NCBI GenBank assembly: GCA_963770835.1 | Contig: CAVYRH010000010.1 | Location: 151,266 to 215,265 of the forward strand | Reading direction: 5' to 3' | From: an uncultured Pseudomonadota bacterium | GTDB taxonomy: Bacteria; Oederibacteriota; Muellerivitia; Muellerivitales; Muellerivitaceae | DNA length: 64,000 nucleotides | Shown here: in pieces, positions 21,781-62,172 of the stretch | How positions within the stretch are numbered: position 1 is the stretch's first letter | How the letters are laid out: every line of letters begins with the position of its first letter | Notes under the pieces: generated by a model | Databases searched by the model: none | What the model saw: only the letters and a program-made list of their open reading frames with translations | What the model was told of the DNA's origin: nothing | Position numbers and translations under genes: made by a program

Positions 21781-22545
21781 CGAAAGGGGTTTAGCGGCAG
21801 GCAGCCCACTGCGGGGATCCGTGCAATGCCCCCCGCCCGTCTTTTCCGGACAGTTTTTAGGCTGAAACACTTAAATCTTTCCTCCCGCCGTGTTTTTCAT
21901 TGCCCAATCCTTTCGTCACGACTAGAATTTTTCATATCTTTTTATTTATGCTGTTTTGAATTTTGAACCCAAAGAATGTGCCGAAGGGTTCGAATATTTC
22001 TTTAGCTTATGGAGGTCCACCATGCCCACAGCCACCCTGGTTTCCATCGTTCTCTCCAAAATCCTGCCTAACCCGCAGCAGCCCCGCCGGCGCTTTCGGA
22101 GGGGGTCCATCCAGGAAATGGCCGACTCCCTTATAGACCTCGGCCAGCAAACCCCCGCCAAGGTTCGCCCGCTGACACCGGATGAAAAAGCCCTCAACCC
22201 CGGCTTCGACTACATGCTCATCGGTGGCCACCGGCGCCTAGCCGGAGCCAAGCTGGCCGGATGGAGGGCTCTGGACTGCATCATTCTGGACATCCCCCCC
22301 GGCGATACCCACATGGCCGCCCTGGTTGACAATGACGCGGAGGAAATGGACTGGTGGGACTGGGATTTGGCCATTGAGGTGGAAGCTAAGGCCCAGGCGG
22401 TCCCCTCCCAACGGCAACTGGCCACCCGGTTGGGGATAGGTCTTACGAAGGTGAATATCGCCTTGAAGATCACCAAGGCCCTTTCCGCTAACGCCAGGGA
22501 GCTGGTGACCCAAAACCTGGACAAAGCCGCATCCGAGGGGGGGAG

Positions 22546-22566
22546 GGTGTTCGGACTCCGAACACC
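22546..22566. promoter_or_regulatory. Perfect palindrome, candidate parS-like site inside ParB-like gene
   Basis: GGTGTTCGGA C TCCGAACACC. Confidence 0.55.
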
Positions 22567-22965
22567 GGGGGGGCTTATTACCAGATAACCGAGTATGTCT
22601 TGTTGGCTTTGGCCAACTTGGAAGACCAACTTTTGATTTACCGGGCCCTGAAAGTGGTCCTAGATCAGCATTTGACTGAGCAAAAGACCAAGAAACTGGT
22701 GGATTGGGTCAAACAGGGGGGGCAACCGGATGATTTCGATCGAAAAGAAGAGGGCAACCGCCCGGAAGACCCCTATGAGACCCAATGGGCCCTATTGCGG
22801 CCGGGGATCAAGGTGAAATACAAGGGCCGGGAGACTTACCAGGTCCAAATGACGATTCAGGGGGAGCAAGAAACCTGGAATGTGGCTTCCGCAGTCGCCA
22901 ACGCTCTCAAAGGCCAGGGTAGTCCAACCACCGACCCTGTGTTGAGCCCGTCGCAGGACCCCGCC

Positions 22966-23057
22966 CCTCCAAGCCACCCTTCCACCGAAGCCTTGGCGCA
23001 GGTGGATGGCGCAGGAGGCTTATTCCCCCTATCCCCCGAAGCCGTGGCAAAGGGGGA
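22966..23057. repeat. In-frame GAA-tagged palindromic repeats (nested and tandem)
   Basis: TCCACC GAA GCCTTGGC GCA GGTGGA and TCCCCC GAA GCCGTGGC AAA GGGGGA. Confidence 0.7.
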
Positions 23058-23633
23058 GGCTGGCGGGGTTGAGGCCGTCCCGGACCTGGCCGTTCCTCCC
23101 CAAAAAGGTTTTCTTGGTGTCTTGATTTCTTGGCGGACGAACTTCGGCCGTGCCTGGGCGAAGAAGAATATCCCCGAACTTGTTAAGGCCGCCGCAAAGT
23201 CGGCCTGGCAAAATGGGAGCCTTGCTGTCCGTAATCCGGCCCAAACAGCGAAAGAGCTTTTCAACGGCCAAGACAAAACCGCCGCTCTCGTTAGCTATTG
23301 GGCAATTGGCTTGGGGTTGGTTTGGGTAGTTTTTAAGGTTCTCAGTCTTGTTTGGCACATCCTAAGGAGCTGGTTTTAAGGGGCGCCGGGGCGCTTCCGG
23401 GTTCCGGCGTTTATTTGAACATCAATTACACCAACGGTGGTTTGACGACGACCAATGATACAACGGGTAATCCCGTCGCCATGCCCGGGACTTTGGCCGG
23501 GCAAAGGAATGAACCCGAGCCCTGCATCTCCGCCGATTGGGTCCACCCTTAACCTCCCCACCCTTCCCGAAGAATTCCACTGAACTCCTCCATGAAGGAC
23601 TAAAATCAAGGAAATCAAAGAAAAGGAGTTTTC

Positions 23634-24116
23634 ATGAAAAAAGCCTCCGCCGATCGCCCCAACATCCTCTTGTATCCGCCCCTGATTCCTTTGGGGGTCC
23701 TCCTTGCCGGCGTGCTATTGGGTTACCTCCTTCCGGTTTGGGGACAGGCACCCCATTTGACCGGCGGCCTTTGGCTGGCGGCTGGAATCCTCTTGGCGGT
23801 TTTGGGGTTTGCCCTTGTTATTTCCGCCCTGGTCCTATTCCGGAAACACGGAACACCCGCCCAACCCCACAAACCCACCAAGAAGATCGTCCGGGGGGGA
23901 CCTTACCGGTTCACCCGCAACCCGATGTACTTGGGGGGGAACCTAGCCCTCCTGGGGCTGTCTTTCCTGTTCTACCTGCCTTGGGTTTGGGCTGTGTTTT
24001 TGATCGGCCTGCCGATCAACCATTGGGGCATTGTTTTGGAGGAGGAAAAATACCTGGAGAAAAAATTCGGCAAACAGTACCGGGACTACAAAAAAAGCGT
24101 CCGGCGATGGATTTGA
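23634..24116 (+). CDS. Isoprenylcysteine carboxylmethyltransferase family protein
   Basis: GPYRFTRNPMYLG, EEKYLEKKFGKQYRDYKKSVRRWI. Confidence 0.9.
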   Translation: MKKASADRPNILLYPPLIPLGVLLAGVLLGYLLPVWGQAPHLTGGLWLAAGILLAVLGFALVISALVLFRKHGTPAQPHKPTKKIVRGGPYRFTRNPMYLGGNLALLGLSFLFYLPWVWAVFLIGLPINHWGIVLEEEKYLEKKFGKQYRDYKKSVRRWI

Positions 24117-24349
24117 CTTTGGGGAAGACCGGGGCCGGTACCGATTCCTGGATAAAGTGGGATCCAATTTAGGAGAACCCCGGGGGCCCGAGGCGGCGCC
24201 CGACGAAAACCACGTCCATTGCCTGCGCGGGGGTTCTTGCGAGAGCGACGCCACCCGTTTACGCTAAGCCTTCCGAGGCGAAGCCGGCGCGGGGAGCGAC
24301 CACATCGGGTTTCGCTGCGCCAGGACTCCTTAGGCTTGCCCTTTTGTTT

Positions 24350-24793
24350 TTAGCCCTGCCCCATTTTTTGTCGGATCAGGTAATCCGCGATGCGCTTCAC
24401 GTCTTCCTTGCTAATGGCTATGATCCTCATTCCGGCGGAGTAAACGGTCCGGCCCATTTCCAGGATTTTTTCCACGTGCCGGACCTCCGCCAAAAACTTC
24501 AGGCTGACCGGGAAATTCGGCAGGTCCATGTTCACCTCGACCACGGACCCTTTCGGGAGGGGGTGCTGGCTGTGCATGGCCAAGCCGCAAATGGAGATAT
24601 CCTTGGTGACGGCCTTGTACAGGGTTGATTTTTTGGAAAGCTCTGGAAGATGTTCCGCCGTCGTGGTCCGGTAACGGTCTTGTTTCAGAAGTTTCTTGGT
24701 TTCATCCGCAGTGACGGTCATATAGTTCACCTTCAGGGTGGCCAGGACCCGTTCATGCTTTCGTTTTTCCATCCACCCGCTCTTGGCTTCCAT
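24350..24793 (-). CDS. PilZ domain protein
   Basis: RKHER (RxxxR) and DISICG (DxSxxG); GGAGG RBS. Confidence 0.8.
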   Translation of the reverse strand: MEAKSGWMEKRKHERVLATLKVNYMTVTADETKKLLKQDRYRTTTAEHLPELSKKSTLYKAVTKDISICGLAMHSQHPLPKGSVVEVNMDLPNFPVSLKFLAEVRHVEKILEMGRTVYSAGMRIIAISKEDVKRIADYLIRQKMGQG

Positions 24794-25078
24794 CGCAACC
24801 TCCCTTGTGAAAATCACCCCGCCCGAAACGGTAAGTTAAGTAAGGCATTATAAAAAAGTATGAAAATGGAATGTGAGATATTTTGGGCTATAGACGATCA
24901 ACAAATAATGGTTATTCGTCTGTCGGAAGGGCGGCCGCCAAACTTCGCAGGAAACCTTGGGAGGGACCCCCGCCGTATCAAATGGAAATACCGAACGGGA
25001 ACCAGAAAAGAAATCCGCACTTGTCTTTGAGGGAAGGCCTTGGTTATAAAAGGACAACTTTAATAATTGGAGGGAAGT

Positions 25079-25855
25079 ATGAGGAAATGGCTTGCCGCGG
25101 TTTTGCTGTTTTGCGTGTCGTTGGGTTTCGCCCAGGCGAAAGTGGTCACCCAAACCATTGATTACAAGGACGGCGACACGGTCCTCGAAGGTTACCTGGC
25201 TTACGACGATTCCATCCAGGGCAAAAGGCCGGGGATCCTGGTGGTTCACGAGTGGAACGGCCTGGGACATTACGTCCAGGGGCGGGCCGAGCAGTTGGCC
25301 CAACTGGGTTACGTGGCCTTCGCACCGGATATTTACGGAAAAGGGGTCAGGCCTGATGGCTTCGAGGCCTGCAAGGCCGAATCCTCGAAATTTTACGCCG
25401 ACCGGGCCCTCTTGCGCCGCCGGGTCAGCCTGGGATTTGACCAATTGAGGGACAACCCCCTGGTGGATCCCTCCAAGACCGCCGCCATTGGTTATTGTTT
25501 TGGGGGCGCCACGGTTTTGGAATTAGGGCGAAGCGGGGCGGATATCGCCGGAATCGTCACTTTCCACGGGGGACTGGACAATCCCACGCCGGCGGACGCC
25601 AAGAACATTAAGGCCAAGGTCCTCGTCTGCCAGGGCGGGGCGGACCAGTTCACCCTCCCGGCGCTTCCGGGTTTTAAAAAGGAAATGGACGACGCCAAGG
25701 TGGATTATAAAATCATCCTATACAAGGGCGCGGTCCATGGGTTCACGAATCCGGACAACAAGGGCACGGTTCCCGGGCTGAAATACGACGCCGACGCGGA
25801 CAAGAAATCCTGGAAAGCCATGAGGGATTTCCTCAACAAGATATTTAAATCGTAA
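25079..25855 (+). CDS. Dienelactone hydrolase family protein, secreted
   Basis: HEWNG, GYCFGG, HGFTNP; signal peptide. Confidence 0.92.
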   Translation: MRKWLAAVLLFCVSLGFAQAKVVTQTIDYKDGDTVLEGYLAYDDSIQGKRPGILVVHEWNGLGHYVQGRAEQLAQLGYVAFAPDIYGKGVRPDGFEACKAESSKFYADRALLRRRVSLGFDQLRDNPLVDPSKTAAIGYCFGGATVLELGRSGADIAGIVTFHGGLDNPTPADAKNIKAKVLVCQGGADQFTLPALPGFKKEMDDAKVDYKIILYKGAVHGFTNPDNKGTVPGLKYDADADKKSWKAMRDFLNKIFKS

Positions 25856-25934
25856 CCCAGCCAACCAGGCATCCTTCCTTCGGGACCCCCGGACATTCGT
25901 GGGACCCCAAGAGGCAAGGCCGACCCGTAGCCCT

Positions 25935-28289
25935 TTACTTTTTCGCCTGGCCGATTAAATCCTCCAACCCCTGAATTGAAGGGTTCTTCTCTGCTGTCGG
26001 GTTCAGGCCCTCGGCCGCTTCCAGGTCCCTCAAAGCCAAGTTTTTCTTTCTTTCCTGCAGATAAAGGATACCCCGGCAATAGTAGGCCTCCGCGCTGGAG
26101 GTGTTCCTTTGGATGGCCTCAGCCAGGAGGCCGAAGGCCTGGGGCTTGTCGCCCGCATGGTATTCCTCAAAAGCCTTTTGGGAGAGGACCTTGGAGGTGA
26201 AAGCGGGGTCGAGCGCGAAGGCCGTTTCTAACTGGGCCTGCGAATCTTGTGTTCTTCCCAGCTTTTGGAGCGCGTTGGACCAATTAATAATGAAAAGGGG
26301 GCTGGCGGGGTCCCAATGAACGGCTTGCCGGTAGGCTTCCTCGGCCCTGGCCGGGTAGTCGCCGCCGTAACGGCTTAACGTGTCGCAAAGGCGGCCTTCA
26401 TCGTTGTAGTAATAGGAGTTGGCCGGGCTCATTTGGAGAGCCTGCTCGTAACAGCTGAGGGCCTCCAGGTCCCAATCCTTAGCGCGGTCGGGGTCGATTT
26501 GGGCCCTTTGCTCGTAGGCCAGTCCCAGGTAGAGGACATACTTCACTTCCAGAGGACACAATTGGACCGCCCGTTTCATTTGGCCGATCTCAAAATCCGA
26601 ATATTCGGAGTAAAGCTCCGGCGAGGTTTGGGGGTTGGGGTTTTTGAGGGCTTCGGCAACGGTGCCGCCCAGGCCAAAGGCGATGTCGGCGCCCAGGCGA
26701 TTCAAGGGAAACCAGGGGATCACCAGCAAGAGCAAAATTAGCGCCGGTTTTTCAAGGAACATGAAGAAACGGGTGCCGGCGGAAGCCCCGGCCGCGGGTT
26801 GGGAGGACCGGTAGTTCCATTGCACCGCGGCCAAAAGCAAAAACCAAAGCAGGTTGATGCTGGCGACCCCAAAACTGAAGAAATTTTGAGCATGGTAGGC
26901 GAGGGCGGAGGCGAAAACGGCGGCCAAAAGCCACTTCACGGGCGCGGAGGTGGCCTGATAGGCCTTCCATCCCATGAATAGAAATGATCCCAGGACCCCC
27001 AGGTAGGCCGCGAGCCCCAGGAAGCCGGTGGTGCAGGCCATCTGCAAGAGTTCGTTGTGGGCCATGCGGGAGCTCATAAACATGCCGTCGATCTGGTTGA
27101 ACTCGATGCCGCTGTAATAGGGGAAGGCGATCTTGAAGGTATCCAGCCCCACGCCCAGGACTGGCTTGGCCTCGGCCATTTTCAGACCCGGCCTCCATAT
27201 ATGAAGGCGGGAAACGGCCAAGCTTTGGCCGACGTGGAGGGTGGAATCCCAAAGCCGGTTGAGGAACCCGCGCCCCAAGAAAAAGAACAGGGCGAAAACC
27301 GCGCAAAGGACGATCGCGCCGAAAATTTTTGGAATTTTCGAGAGCCTTTTGCGGATCGGCTCCGAATAGTCCTTGTTCCCGGCGGCGAGGAAGATCCAAA
27401 AACCGAGGCTCAAAACGGCGGCCAGGAATCCACCCCGGCTGCCGGTGCTTAAAAGGCCCAGGATGAGGATGATGACCCCCCCAAAAGCTTCCACCCAGGA
27501 GCGAATCAGCATAAATCGCAGGCCCGCCACCGAAAACATACACAATCCAGCGGCCCTCAGGATGAACTGGAATGTGCTGGAGGGTTCTAAGTGAAGAAAG
27601 GAAGCGCCCTTCGCCGTTCCGAGGACCAAGAATAAAAGACCCCAGGCGCCGAAAACATAGTAAAGGAATTCCGACATGGGGGCCGGTTTGGGTTCCCCGG
27701 AAAGACGCTTGAGGGAAACCGAAAGAAAAAGCGGAAGGGACATCGCCAGGTAAGCCGAAAGGAAATTTGGGTTGCCCAGGGCCGCGAATTCGCGGCTTGC
27801 GACGACTGATTCGGGGTTCCATTGGATGAAATCGAAACCGAAATGCTGGCCAATGGCGTAAAGTGCGGAAAGGAAAGCCGTCAGGGAGTTCAAAACAAAT
27901 AGCTTTTCCAATTTTTCGTTGTTGAGGCGGCGGCTGAAAACCCGGAACCAAAGCAGATAAACGATGAAAGTGGTTAATCCCGAGAAATTCTCATAGTCGC
28001 CTAGGAGGCTGGTGCGCCAGCTCAGGCTGGTGGTGGGTAGGGAAGCGGCGGTTTCCACTGCGAGGAGGATCAAAAGGGCGGTGCTTAAGGGGGTCGGGCA
28101 CAGGCAACCTGTTTCTTTCAGCTCCCAAAGCAGCGCCGGAACCGCCAAAAGGGCCAAAAAAACAAGTTTCGGCAGTTCGAACTGGTCGTGGCTGTGGATG
28201 AAGAACAAAAGGGGGGTGAAAAAAATGGAGAAGAGAATTAAAAGATCGAAAATTTTGGAAAAGACCCGCTTCTGGAACATTTCATTCAT
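25935..28289 (-). CDS. O-antigen ligase family protein with TPRs
   Basis: ALGNPNFLSAY, TGSRGG, PVLGVG, AHNELLQ; TPR tail. Confidence 0.85.
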   Translation of the reverse strand: MNEMFQKRVFSKIFDLLILFSIFFTPLLFFIHSHDQFELPKLVFLALLAVPALLWELKETGCLCPTPLSTALLILLAVETAASLPTTSLSWRTSLLGDYENFSGLTTFIVYLLWFRVFSRRLNNEKLEKLFVLNSLTAFLSALYAIGQHFGFDFIQWNPESVVASREFAALGNPNFLSAYLAMSLPLFLSVSLKRLSGEPKPAPMSEFLYYVFGAWGLLFLVLGTAKGASFLHLEPSSTFQFILRAAGLCMFSVAGLRFMLIRSWVEAFGGVIILILGLLSTGSRGGFLAAVLSLGFWIFLAAGNKDYSEPIRKRLSKIPKIFGAIVLCAVFALFFFLGRGFLNRLWDSTLHVGQSLAVSRLHIWRPGLKMAEAKPVLGVGLDTFKIAFPYYSGIEFNQIDGMFMSSRMAHNELLQMACTTGFLGLAAYLGVLGSFLFMGWKAYQATSAPVKWLLAAVFASALAYHAQNFFSFGVASINLLWFLLLAAVQWNYRSSQPAAGASAGTRFFMFLEKPALILLLLVIPWFPLNRLGADIAFGLGGTVAEALKNPNPQTSPELYSEYSDFEIGQMKRAVQLCPLEVKYVLYLGLAYEQRAQIDPDRAKDWDLEALSCYEQALQMSPANSYYYNDEGRLCDTLSRYGGDYPARAEEAYRQAVHWDPASPLFIINWSNALQKLGRTQDSQAQLETAFALDPAFTSKVLSQKAFEEYHAGDKPQAFGLLAEAIQRNTSSAEAYYCRGILYLQERKKNLALRDLEAAEGLNPTAEKNPSIQGLEDLIGQAKK

Positions 28290-28401
28290 CCTTCGTGATG
28301 GGAAATCATCTTAACATGATGAAGCCGTGAAATATTTTTTCAAAAACGAATCTGAAAAAATATTTTTTCGCTCCTCGAAGAGTGAGAAACCGGTTTTTTT
28401 C

Positions 28402-28429
28402 TTGACAGTGTTGGGCAAAGCTTTATACT
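28402..28429 (+). promoter_or_regulatory. Sigma70 promoter upstream of speE
   Basis: TTGACA-16bp-TATACT. Confidence 0.65.
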
Positions 28430-28563
28430 TAAAAAAATTCATAACAAAATCCAAAAAACAGGGAACAATTTTTGATTTTTAACCCTAAAGCTGTCCCCAC
28501 CCAACCCCAAAAACCCCACCGACCTGCCATTTTGTTAAAAAAATACAAACTGAGGCTTTTTTC

Positions 28564-29505
28564 ATGAACGACATCAGCCCCCATTGGCACATCGAATTTT
28601 ACGCGCCCGATGAAGCCCATATGCGCGGTATTTCGAAGATTTACGCCTCCGAGAAGACCCCCTACCAGCAAGTGGAAGTCATCCAATCCAACCATTACGG
28701 GAAATGCTTGATCCTGGATGGACATATGCAGTCGGCCCAACTGGACGAGTTCATTTACCACGAAAACCTGGTGCACCCGGCCATGGTGACCTGCCCCAAC
28801 CCCAAAAAAGTGGTGATCATCGGGGGAGGAGAGGGGGCCACCCTTTACGAGGTCCTGCGGCACAAGACCGTGGAGAAGGCCTGGATGATCGACATCGACA
28901 AGCGGGTGGTGGATTTGTGCGACCAATACTTGCCCGAGTGGCACCGGGGTGCCTTCAAGGACAAGCGGACCACCCTTTTGTTCCAGGATGGGCGAAAGTT
29001 TTTGGAGAAGAGCAAGGAAAAGTTCGACGTCATCATCATCGACATCCCCGAGCCCGTCGAAGCGGGCCCGGCTTACCTGCTTTATACCGAGGAATTCTAC
29101 AAGATGGTCTCCGGTAAGCTCTCGGAAAACGGCATGGTGGCCCTGCAATCCGGCTGTTCGGCAGAAAAGGAACTGCGGTGCCTGGCGGCTGTGCACCACA
29201 CCCTGAAGAAGGTTTTCCCGATGGTTTATTCCTGGCCCGCCAACGTGCCTTCCTTCGATATTCCCTGGAGTTTCACCATGGCCTCAAAGTCGGTGGATCC
29301 GAAGAGCCTGAAGCGCGACCAAGTGGACAAGATCCTCAAGGAAAGGGGCGTGGGCCTCTTGAAGTATTACGACGGCGAGACCCATGAGGGGATTTTCTTC
29401 GTCCCCAAGTACATCCGGGACGGTTTCAAAAGCCTCAAGGAAATCATTCGGGACGACAAACCGCTCACTTACCGTTTCATTGGAGAGGAGAAGAATTCAA
29501 AGTAA
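28564..29505 (+). CDS. speE: Polyamine aminopropyltransferase (spermidine synthase)
   Basis: KTPYQ, LDGHMQS, DEFIYHE, IIGGGEGAT, FDVIIID. Confidence 0.93.
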   Translation: MNDISPHWHIEFYAPDEAHMRGISKIYASEKTPYQQVEVIQSNHYGKCLILDGHMQSAQLDEFIYHENLVHPAMVTCPNPKKVVIIGGGEGATLYEVLRHKTVEKAWMIDIDKRVVDLCDQYLPEWHRGAFKDKRTTLLFQDGRKFLEKSKEKFDVIIIDIPEPVEAGPAYLLYTEEFYKMVSGKLSENGMVALQSGCSAEKELRCLAAVHHTLKKVFPMVYSWPANVPSFDIPWSFTMASKSVDPKSLKRDQVDKILKERGVGLLKYYDGETHEGIFFVPKYIRDGFKSLKEIIRDDKPLTYRFIGEEKNSK

Positions 29506-31028
29506 ATGTCACTTTACGACGGCCAGGATAAAACCCCCCTCTTTGACGCCATCGTCAGCTACGCCAACGAAAATAAGATCTCCTTCCATACGCCGGGCCA
29601 CAAACACGGCAAGGGAATCCTGAAGGTCTTCACGCTAATTCGTCGGGGACAAGGTGTTCCGGCTCGACCTGTCGGTGATGAGCGAGGTCGACTCCCTCCA
29701 CGAGCCCAGTTCCGTCATCAAGGAGGCCCAGGTCCTGGCCGCCAAGGCCTACGGCGCCGATTATTCCTTCTTCCTGGTCAACGGCACCACGGGCGGCAAC
29801 CAGGCCATGATCCTTTCCGCCTGCGACCCCGGCGACAAGATCATCATCCCCCGCAACGCGCACAAATCGGTCATTTCCGCCGTCATCCTGGCGGGCGCCG
29901 AGCCCGTCTATATCATGCCCAAGATCGACGAGGTCTCGGACCTGATCCTGAACCTGACCCCCGAGCAGGTGGACGAGGCCTGCCGCCAGCATCCCGACGC
30001 CAAGGCGGTGTTGGTGACCAACCCCACTTATTTCGGACTCACCGCCGACTTGGAAGCCATCGCCGAGATCGTGCACCAATACGACAAGATCTTTTTGGTG
30101 GACGAGGCCCACGGGGCACACCTGCATTTCCACCCAGGCCTTCCCAAGTAGCGCCATCGATTCGGGCGCGGATATGTGCGTGCAATCCACCCACAAGCAC
30201 CTGGCAGCCTTAAGCCAGGGCTCCATGCTGCACGTGAAGGGGGTGCGGGTGGACATCCTGCGCCTGAAGACCACCCTGCAGATGCTGCAAACCACCAGCC
30301 CCTCCTACGTTATCCTGGGGTCGCTCGACCTGTCGCGCTACCAGATGGTGCACGGCGGGGAGCAGGCGCTCGACGAAGTCATCCAAATGTGCGAGGACAC
30401 CCGGGCCAAAGTCAACAAAATCCCGGGTTTGACCTGCCTGACGCGTGAGCAAGTGCGCAAGATCCCCAGCTTAGACCTGGATCCCACCAAGCTGACGATT
30501 TCCACCAAGGGCCTGCCCTGCTCGGGTTACGACATGGCCAAGATCCTGAACGCCGAGTACGGCATCCAAACCGAAATGGCGGATTTCCAGAACGTCCTGC
30601 TGTTCGTTTCGCTGGGGAATACGGCCAAGGAACTCAAGCGCTTCGTTTCGGCCCTGGAAAAGATCGTCGTGGATTATAAGGACATGTTCATCAACCAAAA
30701 GAAGCGCAAGCGCATCGTTTTTCCCCACTTCGTGCCCCGCAAGGAAGTGAACCCCCGTGAAGCCCTGACCAAACTGACCCGTAAGATCCCCTTCAAGCGG
30801 TCCGTGGGGAAGATCTGCGCCGAGATCGTCTGCCCGTATCCCCCCGGCATCCCCGTGCTTTGCCCGGGGGAAGTGATCACCCAGGAGATCTACAGCTACC
30901 TGATGAATGTCTTGGATTCTGGGGCCCGAATCAACGGCCAGTCCGACGGCCGCCTTCAAACTATAAAGGTTTTGGAGGACGTCCCCGCCGCCTCCAGCAG
31001 CCAGAAAAAACTTTTCGCCATCGGTTGA
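29506..31028 (+). pseudogene. Orn/Lys/Arg decarboxylase (fold type I PLP) split by two +1 frameshifts
   Basis: FHTPGHK, LVNGTT, VDEAHG, QSTHK and PYPPGIP lie in three frames; removing T29636 and T30149 restores one ORF. Confidence 0.85.
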
Positions 31029-31050
31029 ATTTCCTTGGTTTGAAACTAGG

Positions 31051-31722: not shown

Positions 31723-31795
31723 GCCGAAGAACGTGACTGGATTTGCAGGAAGGTTTTTGATCCTGAGGCAGGACTTAAACGGAGCGGGGAACGCC

Positions 31796-32917: not shown

Positions 32918-33121
32918 AACAGGATTCGGTGTCGAGGTGGATTGTTGGGGCTATTATTAAGCAGTGTTTTATGCGCGTATAGCCAAAAATACAGCAATTC
33001 AAGGAAACTGTTTTACCTGGAAGCGCTTTTTTCCCAGGTGAAGTAGTTTGAACAAAAAGGGAAAAAAGTTTATTTTTCCATAATCGAAAATCACTTTACC
33101 GTGAAATGAAATGAGGTTTAC

Positions 33122-50370: not shown

Positions 50371-50429
50371 TCTACCGGCCCGTCCACCGAAGCTCAACGA
50401 GCGTAGGTGGAAGCTTTAGCGTAGGTAGA
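50371..50429. repeat. Nested GAA-tagged palindromic repeat
   Basis: TCTACC[..TCCACC GAA GCTCAACGAGC GTA GGTGGA]AGCTTTAGC GTA GGTAGA. Confidence 0.7.
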
Positions 50430-50491
50430 TGGCCCGGCTCCTTTGTTTCACTAAAGAATCACCCTGACCCTTTTGTCCCCGGAGTTGAAAC

Positions 50492-51682: not shown

Positions 51683-51813
51683 AATCAAAACGGACGGGGC
51701 CTGTCCAACGGAACGAGGCATCTATGCCTTTAAAATGGAAAAGGCAGGCCAGGCATCTTTGTTCCGGAGCTGAACGCACGGCCTTTTGGGCGGGGAAAAA
51801 GGCGTGAAAGGGG

Positions 51814-51972
51814 GGTCATGCATCAGTTTGAAAAGAAAATGTTACTCCACCCTCACCCCTCCCTCTCCCCTCAAGGGAGAGGGGGAAACACCGCTAAAAA
51901 CCCTCGCCCCTTGGGGGAGAGGGTAGGGTGAGGGGTGCCTTAAGGTTGTCTAACTCAAACTGAGTCATTACC
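51814..51972 (+). mobile_element. IS1-like MITE, short form (159 bp)
   Basis: 18-bp imperfect TIRs; 8-bp TSD GAAAGGGG. Confidence 0.85.
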
Positions 51973-51985
51973 GAAAGGGGATTTC

Positions 51986-54187: not shown

Positions 54188-54300
54188 GGGGCCAAAGGGT
54201 GTTGCCGCCATACCTCAATCCAGGCCGCAATACCTAAAGCCGGCCCTCTATCCGCCAGGACTTATTGGCCCGCGCATCGGCCTTCCTGGACGGAAAACCG

Positions 54301-54507
54301 GGTGGTGCATCAGTTTGAAAAGAAAATGTCGCTTCACCCTCACCCTGCCCTCTCCCCTCAAGGGAGAGGGGGAAACAGCACTAAAAACCCTCGCCCCTTG
54401 GCTTTGGTTTTGGGGGTACATAGGGGATTTCCCCTATGAGGGCCGTTTGGGAGACGGGTAGGGTGAGGGGTGCCTTAAGGTCATACAACTCAAACTGATG
54501 CACTACC
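54301..54507 (+). mobile_element. IS1-like MITE, long form (207 bp)
   Basis: TIRs GGTGGTGCATCAGTTTGA / TCAAACTGATGCACTACC; TSD GAAAACCG. Confidence 0.88.
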
Positions 54508-54610
54508 GAAAACCGGTTAACCGCATTCCCGTTAATTCAACATCCGTTGAGTGGACCTGAAAGGGCCCTGTGGTATATTCCAGGCGATCCTTTTGAGAGG
54601 GAGGTAAAAA

Positions 54611-55528
54611 GTGAAAAAAGACATCCTATTCGCCGTTGTGATCCTGGGGGCCGCGATGGGCCTGGCCGGCTGCGGCAAGAATCTCCCCACACCCACCGCC
54701 GCTTCCAACTCCTCCCCGGCTATGTCCTTTTCCTACACCCTGGCCGGCGCCATCGGCATCCCCTCGGGGGGCGTGAGCATGGACTATCCCGCGGGCTTGG
54801 CCCTCTTCGGGAACGACCTTTGGGTTACCAACACAACGGGGAACGACTTCCAGGCCTGGACCCTGGACGGCGCCCCGGTAACCAACATTACAACCTACAA
54901 CTCCACGAGCTTCACCGGCCCCCTTGGGGCCGCAGTAGGCCCGGATGGGTTCCTCTACGTGGTGGACGCAGGCAACAACCAGCTGGCGGTCTTCCGCCCG
55001 AACGGCGACTATTACACCACGCTGGGGCACAACAAACTGTTCTCGCCCAGCGGGGTGGCTGTGAACGCCTCCTATATCTGCGTGGCCGAGGACAATTATC
55101 CGGGGGCTATTTACCAGATCGCCGTCACGGGTACGGGGGACATGAAGACCTACGGAGCCCCGGTCACCATCACCCCCACCGGTTCGGGGGCCCTCAGTAA
55201 TCCCCTGGGGCTGGCCTTGGACTCCTCCAACAACCTCTACGTGGCCGACCAGGCCAGCCAGCGGGTCGCCAAGTTCAACGCCTCGATGGTCTTCCAGTCG
55301 GCCTTGACGCTCCAGGGCAACACTTGGGGGGTGGCGCTGGACCCGTCGGGGAACCTCTTCGTCAGCGCCCAGCTTGAGCCAATCCAGGTCTACAACCCCT
55401 CGGGAAGCCCCATCACCCAGTTCGGGTCCAATAGCGACGACTATGGCTTGATCGCGCTGGACCCGAACGACGACGTTTATGTGACGGATACCCTTCAGCA
55501 GGAAGTGCTGTTCTACAAAAGGAACTAG
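54611..55528 (+). CDS. NHL-repeat beta-propeller lipoprotein
   Basis: Lipobox LAGC; repeated PxGxAxD..LYVxD motifs. Confidence 0.85.
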   Translation: MKKDILFAVVILGAAMGLAGCGKNLPTPTAASNSSPAMSFSYTLAGAIGIPSGGVSMDYPAGLALFGNDLWVTNTTGNDFQAWTLDGAPVTNITTYNSTSFTGPLGAAVGPDGFLYVVDAGNNQLAVFRPNGDYYTTLGHNKLFSPSGVAVNASYICVAEDNYPGAIYQIAVTGTGDMKTYGAPVTITPTGSGALSNPLGLALDSSNNLYVADQASQRVAKFNASMVFQSALTLQGNTWGVALDPSGNLFVSAQLEPIQVYNPSGSPITQFGSNSDDYGLIALDPNDDVYVTDTLQQEVLFYKRN

Positions 55529-55554
55529 CCCGCGGTATTGGCTTCGACGAAGCT

Positions 55555-55700
55555 CGACGACCGCGCCGTGCCCAGCCACGGCTATATGCCACGGACAAGC
55601 TCATCGCCCAAACCGCCGATGTTTGCGCCTTCGAGGCTTACAACTTGGGCATCGTGAGCGCGCCCCAAACGGGCCCGGCCGGCGGACCGGGCCGTTGAGG
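55555..55700 (+). pseudogene. Degenerate duplicate of prolyl oligopeptidase 3' end
   Basis: Near-identical to 53959-53983 joined to 54060-54189. Confidence 0.85.
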
Positions 55701-55724
55701 CCGGCCGCCTTTGCTTCGATTTGC

Positions 55725-55931
55725 GGTAGTGCATCAGTTTGAAAAGAAAATGTTACTCCACCCTCACCCCGCCCTCTCCCCTCAAGGGAGAGGGGGAAAC
55801 AGCACTAAAAACCCTCGCCCCTTGGCTTTGGTTTTGGGGGTACATAGGGGATTTCCCCTATGAGGGCCGTTTGGGAGACGGGTAGGGTGAGGGGTGTCTT
55901 AAGGTCGTCCAACTCAAACTGAGTCACTACC
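55725..55931 (+). mobile_element. IS1-like MITE, long form (207 bp)
   Basis: Same TIRs; TSD CGATTTGC/CAATTTGC (7 of 8 match). Confidence 0.85.
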
Positions 55932-55999
55932 CAATTTGCCGATGGTTTACTGGTTAAAACCTGAAAAACCTTGCTCCGCCGTTTTGCTATAATAGGGGC

Positions 56000-56182
56000 A
56001 TGAAAAAGACCGTAAAAAAATTAAAGTTGGGCCAGGAGTCTCCGAAAGATGATTTGGCCTATTGGTTAAGCCGTCCCGCGGAGGAACGTATCGAAGCCAT
56101 GGAGATTTTGCGGAGGGAATGGTTTGGAAATTCAGCCCGACTTCAAAGAACTGCTCGCGTTATTAAATCAAAACAAGGTTGA
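56000..56182 (+). CDS. Small hypothetical partner of nucleotidyltransferase
   Basis: DDLAYWLSRPAEERIEAMEILR; extended -10 directly upstream; overlaps next gene. Confidence 0.65.
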   Translation: MKKTVKKLKLGQESPKDDLAYWLSRPAEERIEAMEILRREWFGNSARLQRTARVIKSKQG

Positions 56183-56570
56183 ATATATCGTTGTTGGGGC
56201 CTTCGCCATGGCTTTTCATGGTGCCCCCCGCTTTTCGGGCGATATCGATATTTACGTCAATCCCGCTTCCGAAAACGCCCGCCGAGTCACAAAAACAATC
56301 CAAGATTTTGGCTTTGGGTCCCTTGGCCTCAAAGAGGGGGATTTCGACCGGCCCGGCCAAATCATCCAACTGGGCCAGCTGCCCGTTCGAATTGACCTGA
56401 TTACCTCCATTTCCGGCGTCACGTGGGAAGAGGCCGACGCCGGAAAGGCCCCCGGTCAATACGGCGATATTCCTGTTCATTATTTGGGCCGCAAGCAAAT
56501 CATCGCCAACAAAAGAGCGTCGGGCCGTAAGAAAGACTTAGCGGATTTGGAAGCACTTGGTGAAGAATAG
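56124..56570 (+). CDS. Nucleotidyltransferase (DUF6036/AbiEii-like)
   Basis: VVGAFAMAFHGAPRFSGDIDI, NKRASGRKKDLADL. Confidence 0.8.
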   Translation: MEIQPDFKELLALLNQNKVEYIVVGAFAMAFHGAPRFSGDIDIYVNPASENARRVTKTIQDFGFGSLGLKEGDFDRPGQIIQLGQLPVRIDLITSISGVTWEEADAGKAPGQYGDIPVHYLGRKQIIANKRASGRKKDLADLEALGEE

Positions 56571-56617
56571 GCCGCGAACAAAAAGAGTTGGCGGCTGACT
56601 TGACCCTAAAGCGCTGA

Positions 56618-56965
56618 ATGTTGGCCAGGCACCTTTTTTTGATGTTTGAATTTATCCACGATTTGAAAAAACTGGGCAGGGGTCTCGAACAGGGGGGTTT
56701 AAGAATTCCACCCGAAATTCGTGAAGCCTTCCGGTTGACGAAATACGTGCTTGAAAGCCGTTATCCCGGAACTATTGAAAGGGTCACGGAAAAAGAATAC
56801 AGGGAAACCGTGGCATTGGCCGAGGCCGCCGTGAAATGGGCTGAGAAGATCATCCAATCCTCGGAAGGCTTCCAGGGCCTCTCCGTCCACGAAACCCCGG
56901 CGGTTTACGCCGCGCGCCCGAAAGCCAAGGGCAGGGCGCGGGGCAAGAAGCGCAAAAGCAAATAA
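56618..56965 (+). pseudogene. HEPN-domain protein, N-terminally eroded
   Basis: IHDLKKL and LTKY..ESRYPG motifs; upstream helix missing. Confidence 0.6.
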
Positions 56966-57057
56966 CCGGACCCTTCGGTCCAACGTTGGCCTGACCCCTT
57001 TGTTACGCTCATGTTTGGGTTTGACCTCTTTAAACCGCGCTGGATCGGGGGCGAAAA

Positions 57058-57360
57058 ATGAAATTGGAATTCACGATTGGGGGCAAGGAAAAGCTCCATA
57101 TTGTCATCAAACGGAATTGGTTCACCGGCAGTTTCACCTACGCCGTGAACGGGAAGTTCCAAACCCTCCAAAGCGCCTGGAACCCCACCACCCACTTCGG
57201 CTTGAAATTACAAAGGACATACGACTTCGAGGTTAGCACCCGGGAGAAGCACCGGATTTGCATCGAGAAAATACGGCCGCTGCTGTTTGCCGGCTTCCGG
57301 CCGCAAGAGTATAAGGTTACGGTGGATGGGAATAGGGTGGCCCAATCCAAAGGCTTTTAG
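57058..57360 (+). CDS. Hypothetical all-beta small protein
   Basis: 100 aa ORF with plausible composition. Confidence 0.6.
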   Translation: MKLEFTIGGKEKLHIVIKRNWFTGSFTYAVNGKFQTLQSAWNPTTHFGLKLQRTYDFEVSTREKHRICIEKIRPLLFAGFRPQEYKVTVDGNRVAQSKGF

Positions 57361-57690
57361 GCCAATTGACCCGGAACCAAAGTGTTAGGTGAATATACCT
57401 TCAAGACAAGTAACGGCGATTTTGCCGCCGAGCGGCGCCGATACCCCACATGTCCGTTGTTCTAAAGTTTTAGGAAATGTGGGGTCATACCACCCTCCTT
57501 ATTAAAATAAATGACGGATGAGGGGTGGCATAAACGCCGAAAAATCTTTGAATTTCTTTCCTTTCCGCGTCAATCCGCGTGTGTCGGCGGCCCCCTTTTT
57601 TATGTCTTTCCGGTTTTTGCATTTCACTTGTCGTCATGGGATAGTCGCCCCCAAAGCCCCGCCTTTTTTATCGCGGGCCCCGGCGCTTTC

Positions 57691-57897
57691 GGTAGTGCAT
57701 CGGTTTGAAAAGAAAATGTTACTCCACCCTCACCCCGCCCTCTCCCCTCAAGGGAGAGGGGGAAATACCACTATAAACCCTCGCCCCTTGGCTTTGGTTT
57801 TGGGGGTACATAGGGGATTTCCCCTATGAGGGCCGTTTGGGAGACGGGCAGGGTGAGGGGTGCCATAAGGTTGTCCAACTCAAACTGAGTCACTACC
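57691..57897 (+). mobile_element. IS1-like MITE, long form (207 bp)
   Basis: Same TIRs; TSD GCGCTTTC. Confidence 0.88.
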
Positions 57898-57948
57898 GCG
57901 CTTTCATTCGGGTTGAAATCACTATCCAGCTTCGTTATAAGGATCGCT

Positions 57949-58794
57949 GTGAACGAACTGGACTTGGTTGAACAATATTTCCTGAGGGATCTCACCGAGG
58001 ACGAGAAAATAGCCTTGGACGAGCTGCTCGAGAGGTCCCCCGAGGCCGCCGGGCTTTTCCAGGAAAGGGCCGGGGCTGTTTCCCCGCCCCGCAGCCTGCC
58101 TGAGATCCAGTTGCCGCCGCCGCTCCCGCCCCCCGAGGCCGCCGGGCTTTTCCAGGAAAGGGCCGGGGCTGTTTCCCCGCCCCGCAGCCTGCCTGAGCTC
58201 AAGTTGCCGCCGTCGCTCCCGCCCCCCAAGCGCGGCGTGATCCCCCTTTCCCTATGGCTGTGGGTTTTGGCGGGGTATGTGCTGCTGGCCGCGGCCTTTT
58301 GGTTTTGGTCCAGGAACCACGACATCCATTGGCCTTGGAGCCTATCGGAACCGGTTGCCTCGTCCGGTCCGGCTGATTCCCCAGCCCAAGAGATTCCGAA
58401 AACCGCCTCCCGGGGCCTGGTTTCCCCTTTGGCGAATGAAATTGTAACGGATAACGACGCGGCCCTGGCCATGGGAGTCCCGCCGACGCCCGAGGACGAA
58501 CCCAATGACGGCGTCACCCCGGTACCCGCGTCCGCTTTATCCCCAAACTCGGGGAACCCCGGCCTGCGGATCCTGGTGGAAAGGCCCATGCCCGGCTTGG
58601 TCACGGTGACGGTGCTGGACTCGGCAGGGGATGAGATCCGGACGCTCTATAACGGAACCCTCCAAGCCGGCCGATGGGCCATTGACTGGGACGGACGCCT
58701 CGCCGACGGAAACAAGGCCCCCATCGGGGCCTATGCCCTCCTGGCCCGGTCGGGTTCCAAGGACCAAAAACAAGAAGTCTGGATCGGCCAATAA
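57949..58794 (+). CDS. Single-TM protein with anti-sigma-like N-terminus and C-terminal FlgD Ig domain
   Basis: LVEQYFLRDLTEDE, 93-bp tandem duplication, TM, VLDSAGDEIRTL..WDGR..GAY. Confidence 0.65.
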   Translation: MNELDLVEQYFLRDLTEDEKIALDELLERSPEAAGLFQERAGAVSPPRSLPEIQLPPPLPPPEAAGLFQERAGAVSPPRSLPELKLPPSLPPPKRGVIPLSLWLWVLAGYVLLAAAFWFWSRNHDIHWPWSLSEPVASSGPADSPAQEIPKTASRGLVSPLANEIVTDNDAALAMGVPPTPEDEPNDGVTPVPASALSPNSGNPGLRILVERPMPGLVTVTVLDSAGDEIRTLYNGTLQAGRWAIDWDGRLADGNKAPIGAYALLARSGSKDQKQEVWIGQ

Positions 58795-58937
58795 GGCCGG
58801 CGTCCACGGGGGCTCCACCATTTTAAGCAGCCATAAATCCGGCATTTCGTAGGAGGCGCGGAGGGTAGAATTGTGCGGATTTAAAACATTCTCTGGGTCG
58901 AGAAGAAACCGAAGTTCTAAGCTTTTATGAGGGATTG

Positions 58938-59903
58938 ATGAAAAGCAAATTTTATTTATTAGCCGTCATTTTTTTTCTGATTTTTCAATTCTTTCCCCAC
59001 GCTCTTAAGGCCGAGCCTGTCGATTTGTATGACCAGGGCCTCGATTATTACTATGGCATAGGGGTTAAGCAGGATTATCAAAAAGCCATGCAATGCTTTC
59101 AAGCCGAGGGTTCGTATGGGTCCCTGTTCGTCATCCTGATGTACATCAATGGACAGGGGGTAAAGGTGGATTTGGATAAGGTACAAAAGTTGTTGGATAG
59201 CACCAGTGAGGATGAACTTGGTGCCAGCCCTGAGGAGATAAAAAGGGCTATCGAAGAAAGAAGGAATAATCCCGGAAAAACGTTTCAGCCTCTTACTTGC
59301 GATGACGTAGCGGAAACAACACCGGAAATAAACCAGTGCGAAGGCATCAAAATGGATATCGCCAAAAACCGGTATAAGTCCGAAATCGAAGAGGCTCAAA
59401 AATACATGGGGCCCGGCGAAGTAAATGTCTTAGCCGTGGTGGAAGAAAAATTCGAGACGTATGAAAAGAATGATTCCGAGCGTGTACTCGACAATAGCGA
59501 CGGCTCTATGAGGACCCTCTATGAATTGGGCCAAAGCGAAGAATTGATGGAAAACCACGGGGCCCGGATCGAAATGTGGCTCATTCAACGCCGATTAAAG
59601 TTGTTTAGGGCAGATGATTTTGAAAAAGCGGATAGAGATTTAAACGTGGCGTACAATCACATGATGGGAGAAAGCTACGACATCCGGAAGCACTCCATGG
59701 AATCGGAAAATAGCCAAGATTCTAAGGATCGTGCTTCCGTTGCCATCACAGCGGAAAAAGCCTGGATTGATTACCGTGACGCTTGGGTCAATTTATTAAA
59801 ACTGTACCGGCCGAAAGGGAATTTGAGCGACGCCGATATTGAAAACTCCGTTAAAACTCAATTGAGTCTCGATCGTATAAACGAATTGAAAGAGGATGAT
59901 TGA
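58938..59903 (+). CDS. Secreted Sel1-repeat plus LprI (DUF1311)-like protein, AT-rich
   Basis: YYYGIGVKQDYQKA, ADRDLNVAY, AEKAWIDYRD. Confidence 0.75.
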   Translation: MKSKFYLLAVIFFLIFQFFPHALKAEPVDLYDQGLDYYYGIGVKQDYQKAMQCFQAEGSYGSLFVILMYINGQGVKVDLDKVQKLLDSTSEDELGASPEEIKRAIEERRNNPGKTFQPLTCDDVAETTPEINQCEGIKMDIAKNRYKSEIEEAQKYMGPGEVNVLAVVEEKFETYEKNDSERVLDNSDGSMRTLYELGQSEELMENHGARIEMWLIQRRLKLFRADDFEKADRDLNVAYNHMMGESYDIRKHSMESENSQDSKDRASVAITAEKAWIDYRDAWVNLLKLYRPKGNLSDADIENSVKTQLSLDRINELKEDD

Positions 59904-60276
59904 AAAAAACGTATTGGGGCAAAGTGTTGAATGTTGGGCTGGCCCTTTGGTTTCCTTGTTGTAAATGCAGAGCCGAAAACTAGTGCGTCGAAGGTTAAGT
60001 AAACCGCGAAATCTTTTATTGTCAAATGGATCCAGCAAAGGGGTCACAGCAAAGGGGTCAGGCCTACATTTTCCACTTTAAACTTCAAACCCCAATTCCC
60101 GTAACAATTTGAGCCCTTCTGTCCATAACCTGCACAATAGCTGTCCTCTTAAAGCCTTTACCCTCCCTTTAAACCTCTTTTTACAAAAGAACTCTGGAAA
60201 TCCTGAAAAGCTCAATTTATCTTTCATGAAACGACCCGGTTTAAACGGGTTGGAAATATTGATATGGAGGCCCTAT

Positions 60277-62172
60277 ATGTCCGTCCAAAAACCCGCCTTG
60301 CAGGTCATTGAAATCCCCGTCGATAAAATCCTCCCCAACCCGGATAACCCCCGGGGGCCGATTGATCCTGAAGACGCCAAAACCATGGCCGAGTCCCTCA
60401 TCGAAGAAGGCCAAAAGGACGAGGTGCGGGTGAGGCACCTGACCGAGGCCGAAGAGGCCCGGCACCCGGGCTATGAATGGTTCATGATAGGCGGCCATCG
60501 GCGGCTGGCGGGGGCCAAGCTGGCGGGCTTACCCACCCTGCGGGCCATCGTGGTGGAAGCGAGCACCCCAGAACAGGAGTTTTTGGATGCCCTTTTGGAC
60601 AATCGCTCGGAAGACATGGGCTGGTGGAAGTGGGACTTGGCCATTGAGAAGGTCCTCAAGCCCGCCAACGGGGAGGGCCAAAGGAAGCTGGCGGCCCAAC
60701 TGGGGTATAACCCGGCAAAGATAAATAGGGCCTGGAAGATCACCCAGGCTTTGAGCCCCGCCGCACGGGCTTTGGTGGAGGAAAGTGTTGCGCCGCGCAA
60801 CACCCAAAATAAGGGTTTTTTGATAACTGAGAGCATCCTGCTGGCTTTGGCCGACCTGGAGGACCCCCAGGAGGTCGAAAAGGCCCTGACCCGGGTGGTG
60901 GAAGACAAGATGACCGAATCCCAGGTCCGCCAGATGGTCGCAAACCTCAAGGGTGGGTTGGCCACGGCCCAAACCGCCCCTAAAGCAAGCCAACAACCTG
61001 GGATCACCCCCTCGGCAACCAGCCCAAAAGCAAACCAACAACCCACTTCACCCTCATCCCTTCCTTCTCCCCTAAAGGGAGAAGGGGAAGGCAAGGCTGC
61101 GGGCAAGGGGGCAGTCGCCGGGTTATTAGCCGGACTGTTTAAAAGGCACAGCGGGCATTCCAAACAAGCGGCGCCGGGATGGGGAGGGGTGGGGAAGTTC
61201 CTGTCCCAGAACTTCAAGCGGGCCCTGGGCACCCTCGCCCGGCGGTGGATGGTCCAAGGCTTGGCGGTCATCGTCATAGTCCTTCTCATCAGCCCCCATT
61301 TGCCCTTCTCCCTCTATCACCTGGTATCCGGTTCCATTTCTTCCCAACCGAAGGCGGCCGGCTTCCAGGCACCCCAGGGGAAAACCCAAGCCACAGCCCA
61401 AGCCTTGGTTTTGCCGGCTTCTGGGCTGAGGTCTCAAACCGAAGCCCAAGGTTTGAATGTACCAATTCCTGAGAAACAGGGAATTGGTAACCAAGGGGTT
61501 TCAACTCCGAAATCTCTATCCCCCGAAGCCTTGGCGAAGGGGGACAAACACCACACTTCGAACTCGGCCCAGGTAGTTCCTTCCTGGGCTAGGGAAGAGC
61601 GCATTTTCGCCGCCGAATTCGGAAGCCGCTTTTACGGCGTCAATGCCCAGAATTGGGACGATACCCAAAACTATTTCATCGACCACCTCAACCCTTCCTA
61701 CTTGGCCCCTTTCCTTCACCAGTATTTCGGGGCGGATTTCACAAATCAGGTGCGGCATCATAACCTGGCTTATTCCCTCGATGGCGCCCAGTCCCAGTTC
61801 CTGCGGATGAAGGGGGGCTCGGGGATATTCTTGTTCAAGGGCCTGCAAACCAAGGAGGGGGATGGGCAATCCCCCGTAAGCCTACCCGTTGCCCTGGTCA
61901 TTCAAATCCAGCACCACCCGGACGGGAATAGCCTGGTGGAAAAGGTAACGGTTGTGAATCCCGGGGAAGAAGGGGACCAGGCCGAAAAAACAGACGGGTC
62001 CGCGAAGGGGGACCTGTCTCCCGGAGCTGGAGCGGTAGCGGGAGGTTCAGCGAAGGGAGAAGACCCGCTCAAGGCCGTGAGTGATAGGGTGAAGGATGTT
62101 CAAGGCGCGGTCAACACGGCCAATGACGCCAAATCGGCTGCCGATAAGGCAAGGGCCCTGTTTGGGTTTTAA
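60277..62172 (+). CDS. ParB-like CTPase/HTH protein with TM helix and extracytoplasmic domain
   Basis: ILPNPDNPR, IGGHRRLAGAK, HTH QRKLAAQLG, TM LAVIVIVLLI; GGAGG RBS. Confidence 0.85.
   Translation: MSVQKPALQVIEIPVDKILPNPDNPRGPIDPEDAKTMAESLIEEGQKDEVRVRHLTEAEEARHPGYEWFMIGGHRRLAGAKLAGLPTLRAIVVEASTPEQEFLDALLDNRSEDMGWWKWDLAIEKVLKPANGEGQRKLAAQLGYNPAKINRAWKITQALSPAARALVEESVAPRNTQNKGFLITESILLALADLEDPQEVEKALTRVVEDKMTESQVRQMVANLKGGLATAQTAPKASQQPGITPSATSPKANQQPTSPSSLPSPLKGEGEGKAAGKGAVAGLLAGLFKRHSGHSKQAAPGWGGVGKFLSQNFKRALGTLARRWMVQGLAVIVIVLLISPHLPFSLYHLVSGSISSQPKAAGFQAPQGKTQATAQALVLPASGLRSQTEAQGLNVPIPEKQGIGNQGVSTPKSLSPEALAKGDKHHTSNSAQVVPSWAREERIFAAEFGSRFYGVNAQNWDDTQNYFIDHLNPSYLAPFLHQYFGADFTNQVRHHNLAYSLDGAQSQFLRMKGGSGIFLFKGLQTKEGDGQSPVSLPVALVIQIQHHPDGNSLVEKVTVVNPGEEGDQAEKTDGSAKGDLSPGAGAVAGGSAKGEDPLKAVSDRVKDVQGAVNTANDAKSAADKARALFGF
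60785..60803. promoter_or_regulatory. Perfect palindrome, candidate parS-like site inside ParB-like gene
   Basis: GTGTTGCGC C GCGCAACAC. Confidence 0.55.
61519..61544. repeat. In-frame GAA-tagged palindromic repeat
   Basis: TCCCCC GAA GCCTTGGC GAA GGGGGA encoding SPEALAKGD; a related copy lies at 62017-62060. Confidence 0.7.

Follow-up and report, generated by a model that had tools for sequence, protein, structure and literature searches.

The stretch of DNA analysed here, referred to as the window, comprises 64,000 nucleotides of contig CAVYRH010000010.1 (positions 151,266 to 215,265) from the genome of an uncultured Pseudomonadota bacterium. It contains two ParB-like genes, A and B, each with an odd-length palindrome (its site) inside its own coding sequence. 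Both belong to a family of orphan ParB/Noc-fold proteins that has expanded in a lineage of uncultured soil bacteria. Their features are the following, in window positions; residues of the helix-turn-helix (HTH) are counted in a register set from Q162, G170 and N178 as named in PMC7383237.

22022..23379, plus strand: gene A, with a ParB_N domain (E 2.4e-10), HTH, site-encoding linker, helical domain and small beta/alpha domain; its C-terminal part has a low-complexity stretch, then a hydrophobic helix, and one missing G splits the gene in the assembly
22409..22480, plus strand: HTH of gene A, with Arg at position 2, Leu at position 12 (codon 22442-22444, the equivalent of ParB R173) and Ile at position 17
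22537..22543, plus strand: run of seven G in gene A, eight G in contigs of two public runs
22546..22566, no strand: site A, odd palindrome, with an exact copy (positions 2-8, both arms) in an array at G000:C26:332065 and a one-mismatch copy at G000:C4:644187
23305..23361, plus strand: predicted membrane helix near the C-terminus of A (Kyte-Doolittle 2.0)
60277..62172, plus strand: gene B (631 aa), with a ParB_N domain (E 1.2e-6), HTH, site-encoding linker and helical domain; its C-terminal part has a low-complexity linker, a membrane helix and a VirB8-like domain
60679..60750, plus strand: HTH of gene B, with Arg at position 2, Pro at position 12 (codon 60712-60714) and Arg at position 17
60785..60803, no strand: site B, odd palindrome; the most similar array site (C20:85140) has one base pair changed in each arm
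60806..60820, plus strand: A-rich 3' flank of site B, with codons for NKGF; many array sites have the same flank downstream
61258..61314, plus strand: predicted membrane helix of B (Kyte-Doolittle 2.2)
61573..61974, plus strand: VirB8/DotI-like NTF2 domain of B (predicted local distance difference test score, pLDDT, 93; Z 14.7, root-mean-square deviation 2.3-2.7 A; hhalign 94%, E 1.2e-7)

Site A is a 10+1+10 palindrome centred on 22556 and site B a 9+1+9 palindrome centred on 60794. An earlier, sequence-only reading had placed them there, and both were verified in the window sequence. With 112 perfect 9+1+9 centres in the 4.58-Mb genome, or 2.4e-5 per base, each is rare by chance. The centre falls on the second base of a codon in both genes, ten codons ahead of the helix that starts with ITE. 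Other parts of the earlier reading held less well. The cores do differ, at three of the four inner positions rather than at all four, and the protein alignment is gap-free locally, but A is about 11 residues longer between HTH and site. The VRTPNT peptide ascribed to gene A lies, as assembled, in a frame other than that of ParB_N, and the parS-like TGTT...AACA ends are not a family trait, as the sites are odd-length and 47 of 99 have G at position -7. Nor are there just two such paralogs: besides ten distinct site-bearing genes (one with an imperfect site), this genome carries a divergent copy that has no site, a truncated remnant and, separately, a canonical parB. A scan of the genome for further copies of the two sites located an exact copy of site A in an array; site B has no other intact exact copy apart from a duplicate on contig C22. 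Of this 6.6-kb contig, 5.2 kb, gene B included, are 99.92% identical to the end of the window's contig, which reflects either assembly redundancy or a recent duplication.

As assembled, gene A is frameshifted, and the ParB_N frame from 22022 ends at a stop at 22588. Contigs of the two public runs that cover the spot, X1 and X2, both have one more G behind 22536 (the runs come from different studies, and X1 may be the source sample; X4 and X6 are without coverage there). Gene A is therefore most likely intact and the frameshift an assembly error. A programmed frameshift or phase variation at the G run becomes superfluous with the extra G present in both covering runs, although run contigs drop rare variants, so that minor phase variants could escape such a comparison. 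Three further family genes are split by frameshifts in the assembly (G000:C8:162460, C16:14700 and C26:677950); given gene A, these may also be homopolymer errors.

Family members are numerous. Profile matches at E <= 1e-25, canonical ParB included, were found in 47 of 99 genomes of the phylum, mostly within the window's own taxonomic family and with up to 16 per genome, and 236 clusters at 50% identity pass 1e-30. Other searches returned little: one weak locus from a search of genome contigs, one weak match in viral contigs, and generic ParB-level matches below 60% identity in phage and plasmid collections. A single-protein scan of metagenome contigs gave seven loci, one of them a clear family member. 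It has a site centred on codon position 2 and T at -6 together with P12, as expected (n=1).

The fold assignment rests on several lines. ParB_N scores above the Pfam cut-off in both A and B, the N-terminal 243 residues are modelled with a pLDDT of 91 and match Noc, ParB and KorB, and the hidden Markov model of the family domain matches Noc and Spo0J at E 1e-28 (Foldseek TM 0.62, E 3.5e-10 to Noc 7nfu). In the model of gene B, the peptide that the site encodes is placed behind the HTH, between two helices. The nucleotide boxes are partly preserved. Among 150 representatives the Gly, the second Arg of GxRR and the Asn are invariant, while the first Arg is found in only 43; the ENLQR box is altered, with Glu replaced by Asp in 116 and by Ser in 21 of the 150, and no conserved Arg follows the Asn. 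The P-loop motif of A and B is GGHRR. CTP-gated clamping by family proteins is no more than plausible; CTP itself is an assumption, because the boxes are only partly kept and orphan ParBs can bind ATP or GTP. The small domain of A (10 sequences) gave an hhalign probability of only 3.9% against canonical ParB C-termini, and such a domain was not detected in B. We also noticed a subfamily with two tandem ParB-like modules (G000:C26:622550, C3:134620; L066, L074, L076 and others), in which the second module has degenerate nucleotide and HTH motifs and no site.

The palindrome is conserved well beyond A and B. From fetched loci we built 145 domains, which were classed by profile score and motifs and not by the palindrome. 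Tested against 60 synonymous recodings, the best palindrome of the linker was significant (p <= 0.05) in 83 of the 112 domains of the family, compared with 2 of 16 weak or second domains and 1 of 17 canonical ParBs. It is odd, centred on codon position 2 and scores at least 6 in 89 of the 112. Collecting homologs, the check suggested in the earlier reading, also revealed that the bases of the site track residues of the HTH.

This covariation was measured on 99 domains, that is 114 (the 112 and two added by hand) minus 11 with fewer than 7 of 9 pairs and 4 duplicate or gapped ones. When 225 protein columns were compared with nine site positions, the top pairs that are not self-coded were HTH2/-7, HTH12/-6 and HTH17/-4. 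At position 12, Gln goes with A at -6 (20/20), Arg with G (10/10) and mostly non-polar residues with T (31/35); R2 goes with G at -7 in 38 of 40 cases. Position 12 corresponds by register to R173 of Caulobacter ParB, which bonds guanine 1 of parS in the crystal, whereas Q158 of Noc bonds adenine 1 of the Noc-binding site, NBS (PMC7383237). The Arg-G/Gln-A switch of the family is the same as in these structures. The R2 and non-polar residue 12 common to A and B fit their shared outer arm, and the different residues at 13 and 17 to their different cores. On a quick tree of 97 rows, from which HTH and linker had been left out, independent pairs gave 5.8/6 for R12 (p 0.031), 7.9/8 for Q12 (p 0.008), 7.9/9 for R2-G (p 0.008) and 6.0/11 for R17-G (p 0.031), while all 14 wrong-position controls had p >= 0.25. 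Specificity switches fast between close relatives.

In 53 of 99 genes just 73 nt separate the helix codons from the site, which is why we tested for hitch-hiking. One could imagine that the palindrome is an RNA hairpin, a by-product of template switching or a peptide motif, and that the covariation merely reflects a short segment recombining as a unit; quasi-palindrome correction is able to create symmetric changes. The short distance agrees with such a view; the other data speak against it. Pairs that are less than 35% alike in the helix and less than 50% in the site still share base -6 in 31/31 cases for R12-R12 and 62/62 for Q12-Q12 (versus 0.28-0.29), and R12 is written with five different codons. 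The loop would consist of one base, the synonymous-recoding null is beaten, and the arrays described below are phased at the period of double-stranded DNA. Mismatches within the sites (10 G-U, 8 A-C and 16 other) have no G-U bias and are concentrated at the centre, which favours double-stranded DNA over RNA. We regard this explanation as very improbable. The residue-base covariation survives both the tree and the linkage controls, and paralog-specific self-recognition, as proposed from the two genes, is well supported by the family-wide conservation, the covariation and the helical phasing. On these sequence patterns, binding of family proteins to the site in their own gene can be put forward with considerable confidence.

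Scanning the genome also revealed clusters of similar odd palindromes that are intergenic and have the same flanks as those in family genes. We counted 58 array sites in nine regions of this genome, with many different cores mixed. An exact match (positions 2-8) to the site of a family gene was found for 13 of 49 well-paired array sites, compared with 4 of 1038 non-gene palindromes. The A-rich flank of site B has 195 matches in the genome, and in 11 of these a site lies 9-14 bp upstream (background 0.2%). Ten relatives have similar arrays; among first-hit loci, arrays were present in 6 of 17 from genomes with family genes and in 0 of 10 from genomes without (p 0.057). A search for copies of a gene's own site near promoters gave none upstream in 99 loci and one downstream.

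The spacing of the array sites follows the DNA helix. Of the spacings between 15 and 130 bp, 53/58 deviate by at most 2 bp from a multiple of 10.5 (R 0.82, with a phase close to 0). Another set of arrays, fetched separately, gave 51/59 (R 0.74), whereas other neighbouring palindromes, used as control, gave 20/47 (R 0.03). Tandem sites within genes are 42, 63 or 84 nt apart. From this phasing, it is probable that the arrays are platforms that present several paralogs at once on one face of the DNA; the phasing is observed, and co-occupancy would be its consequence. They could instead be scars of decayed genes without present function, left by simple autoregulated repressors. Array units do retain gene-derived flanks, gene remnants and genes broken by insertion sequences (IS) are present, and all four copies of an IS1595-family element lie within array units. 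Random decay, however, would not yield phased spacings in 104 of 117 cases from 11 genomes, nor would it leave palindromes near-perfect after their coding function was lost, so that this reading appears quite unlikely.

Several observations on arrays and sites may be added. The locus L166:1470-1980 (G073) holds a very regular array of nine sites with spacings of 42-73 bp and repeated flanks, superficially CRISPR-like, behind a gene that we take to encode ribosomal protein L9. The four copies of the IS1595-family element (named by Pfam; G000:C4:643075, C4:85210, C26:330764, C19:97377) each interrupt a family-type site immediately behind its inverted A-rich flank, a regularity that suggests target choice. 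Two of the interrupted sites are similar to site B. A DDE element, presumably IS5-like, has two of its six copies in the flank just after a site (G000:C3:135130, C4:470700), one of them breaking a family gene.

Behind the DNA-binding part the proteins diverge. Of 100 complete open reading frames (ORFs), 56 encode a hydrophobic helix behind the domain and 24 a conserved, VirB8-like outer domain, while 43 encode neither. At its end, gene B has a membrane helix followed by an NTF2-like domain homologous to VirB8 proteins encoded with type IV secretion systems (T4SS); a VirB8-like domain is not present in gene A. Pfam, a PDB sequence search and a protein atlas left the domain of B unnamed, and the fold search called it VirB8/DotI-like. 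Since other NTF2-like proteins share the fold (Z 9-11), the fold alone does not indicate a function. In 16 of 20 VirB4 loci of the lineage family, the profile of the domain matches the 200-residue gene that follows VirB4 directly; among them is this genome's own element with integrase, VirB6 and ArdC (the profile-profile hhalign value listed above refers to this comparison). The element copies are 57-66% alike among themselves, whereas fused copies are 15-49% alike to B, mostly 15-26%, with one near-copy excepted.

A membrane helix is thus found in over half of the proteins, and a VirB8-like outer domain in a quarter, which makes membrane tethering their most likely job. They may anchor tagged DNA to the inner membrane, and VirB8-bearing forms would probably do so at the T4SS channel of co-resident conjugative elements; we offer this function tentatively. 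VirB4 was found in 11 of 19 genomes with family genes and in 2 of 12 without (p 0.03, with kin that are not independent). The same figures would suit a defence against conjugation, in which a divergent mimic, the VirB8-like domain, would jam the channel of the element and the ParB part would serve mainly for autoregulation. The fused domain is indeed homologous to the element's protein yet far more variable, and family genes lie outside T4SS operons. Such a defence would leave unexplained both the phased mixed arrays and the three quarters of the family that have no such domain, and it appears quite unlikely.

Conjugative elements with VirB4, VirB6, VirD4-like, integrase, ArdC, SpoVG-like and GGDEF genes were seen at G000:C2:170300-190500 and on C12, C9/C5 and C1, with a gene order conserved in G015 and G004. 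The Pfam families VirB9 and VirB10 were not found in this genome, which is 96% complete. The family gene nearest to a T4SS lies about 11 kb beyond the integrase (G015).

Family genes are patchy and non-syntenic across genomes and behave as accessory cassettes. No ParA or T4SS gene was found among 150 scanned of 184 called ORFs that neighbour them. Their neighbours vary and include PIN, PemK, Fic and toxin-antitoxin genes as well as, in other genomes, ORF6N (4) and DUF1016 (1); in the window, A and B are accompanied by a PEMT-type methyltransferase, an LprI/Sel1 protein and a PIN gene. Where gene A lies, a genome of the same genus has other cargo. This pattern recalls selfish addiction cassettes, whose protein would be harmful unless bound to a site; the in-gene site would confer self-immunity, and host decoy arrays broad immunity against incoming cassettes. 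The PIN, PemK, Fic, ORF6N and DUF1016 genes nearby, the mainly non-resident specificities of the arrays and the fast change of specificity among close relatives all agree with it. A pure decoy sink, however, would not need helical phasing, Pfam detected no toxic domain in 50 long representatives, and among the first-hit loci arrays came only from genomes with family genes. We consider addiction unlikely.

Some features of these regions stand apart. An ORF6N-type gene near the truncated family gene contains a 16+1+16 palindrome (G000:C19:472993-473025). Within the window, a 170-211-nt intergenic repeat occurs in four copies (51806-51975, 54297-54507, 55721-55931 and 57687-57897), three of which, but not the first, have an even inner palindrome (54419, 55843, 57809); it looks like an element of the repetitive extragenic palindromic or miniature inverted-repeat transposable (REP/MITE) type. 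A FlgD-Ig gene contains two tandem 93-bp proline-rich coding repeats (58037-58222).

The likely overall explanation, in our view, is a family of in-gene operators combined with phased arrays and membrane tethering. Each dimer would read an odd double-stranded operator of about 8+1+8 bp through its HTH. The operator would be written in frame in the gene of the same protein, 70-280 nt behind the codons of the recognition helix, so that a gene and its cognate site would move and diversify together. Loading inside the ORF could make expression self-limiting, by roadblock or by spreading. The same kinds of sites, with gene-derived flanks, would be collected in the helix-phased intergenic arrays. 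The idea of a self-contained cassette is right in that each gene has its own site; it proved too narrow in view of the mixed arrays elsewhere and of the membrane helix and VirB8-like domain of B. Taken together, the sequence comparisons point to a DNA-tethering system with multiple specificities that has not been described before and may be tied to conjugation.

Several results weigh against this explanation. The residue-base tests were chosen after the tables had been seen, and 9 of the 15 pairings tested are non-significant on the quick tree, including D/E12-C, E13-C, E13-G, Q2-T, Y17, N/W17, S16 and P/A13. The palindrome is not beyond the recoding null in 29 of 112 family domains, and 11 of 114 domains have fewer than 7 of 9 pairs. 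The first nine array regions were chosen by eye. Arrays are also not enriched for resident specificities (4 exact matches versus 1.6 expected, p 0.08), which weakens the notion that they are docking sites for this cell's proteins. As to membranes and conjugation, just 24 of the 100 complete ORFs have a VirB8-like domain, which A lacks, and 43 have neither this domain nor a membrane helix. VirB4 gave no match in 8 of the 19 genomes that carry family genes. Seven stretches of the conjugative elements of this genome contained no family-type site, and in the two cases examined the T4SS operon included no family gene.

The known systems closest to the family differ from it in several respects. In B. 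subtilis, a parS lies inside spo0J. ParB/Spo0J-parS and Noc-NBS have in common with the family the N-terminal and DNA-binding fold, the specificity residue with its Arg-G/Gln-A switch and a palindromic site (described in PMC7383237, PMC7333895 and PMC7022226). Canonical ParABS has a ParA partner and an even 16-bp parS, whereas the family has no ParA among its scanned neighbours and odd-length sites with variable arms; one 2-mismatch parS lies elsewhere in this genome. Unlike ParB-parS, the family has about ten paralogs per genome with different odd-length sites, mostly within the code of the DNA-binding domain, altered nucleotide boxes, membrane and VirB8-like fusions, and mixed arrays away from one origin cluster. 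Noc has an N-terminal amphipathic membrane helix. Its NBS specificity is QKKR; A with L12 and B with P12, both with C-terminal hydrophobic helices, differ from Noc in these features.

Orphan proteins of the ParB-CTPase fold (KorB, a structural match of the family domain, VirB, BisD and HerB) are likewise ParA-less, on mobile DNA and variously fused (10.1101/2025.10.10.680097, PMC13370423). The survey among these sources reports ATP or GTP binding for some members and frequent divergence of Box III; the string 'palindrom' does not occur in its main text, and supplements may list members (10.1101/2025.10.10.680097). The available text of these accounts mentions neither an in-gene cognate site nor a paralog code, and neither phased arrays of mixed sites nor a fusion to VirB8. 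Messenger RNA structure at the 5' end of parB is the subject of PMC13371061, and ToxB is described as lacking DNA binding (10.64898/2026.05.05.722872). The VirB8/DotI/TraM subunits of T4SS have the bitopic topology and NTF2-like outer fold of B (Z 13-14.7); the domain of B differs in being fused to a 230-residue ParB-like head, in lying outside a T4SS operon and in its high variability.

The nearest functional analogy is the multi-oriT plasmids of Staphylococcus. There, divergent SmpO proteins of the pWBG749 system each read one variant of a conjugation-tied site, and passenger DNA gathers several oriT variants (PMC4652767). SmpO, as described there, is a ribbon-helix-helix protein beside a true oriT with a relaxase, whereas the family is ParB-fold, with its site inside the ORF and no nick site or linked relaxase identified. 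No description of such a family was found in the literature searched, which did not extend to most subscription papers and bioRxiv supplements.

The family could form a relaxase-independent 'address label' system for conjugation, in which ParB-fold adaptors, some with a captured VirB8 domain, plug into the channel of conjugative elements in the same cell and hold DNA that bears their own palindrome. We find this rather doubtful; if true, each gene would label itself for tethering or transfer, and the phased chromosomal arrays could be gripped by any combination of adaptors. About 100 natural pairs of protein and site would amount to a readable code of the ParB HTH, far beyond the two specificities (parS and NBS) dissected in PMC7383237. 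These pairs make the evolution of specificity directly testable and are candidates for orthogonal ParB/parS tags. An in-frame site beside the recognition helix offers one way for a protein and its site to change together. The phased mixed arrays and the ParB-VirB8 fusion, both absent from the literature searched, may point to a hitherto unrecognised connection between conjugation and DNA handling of the ParB type.

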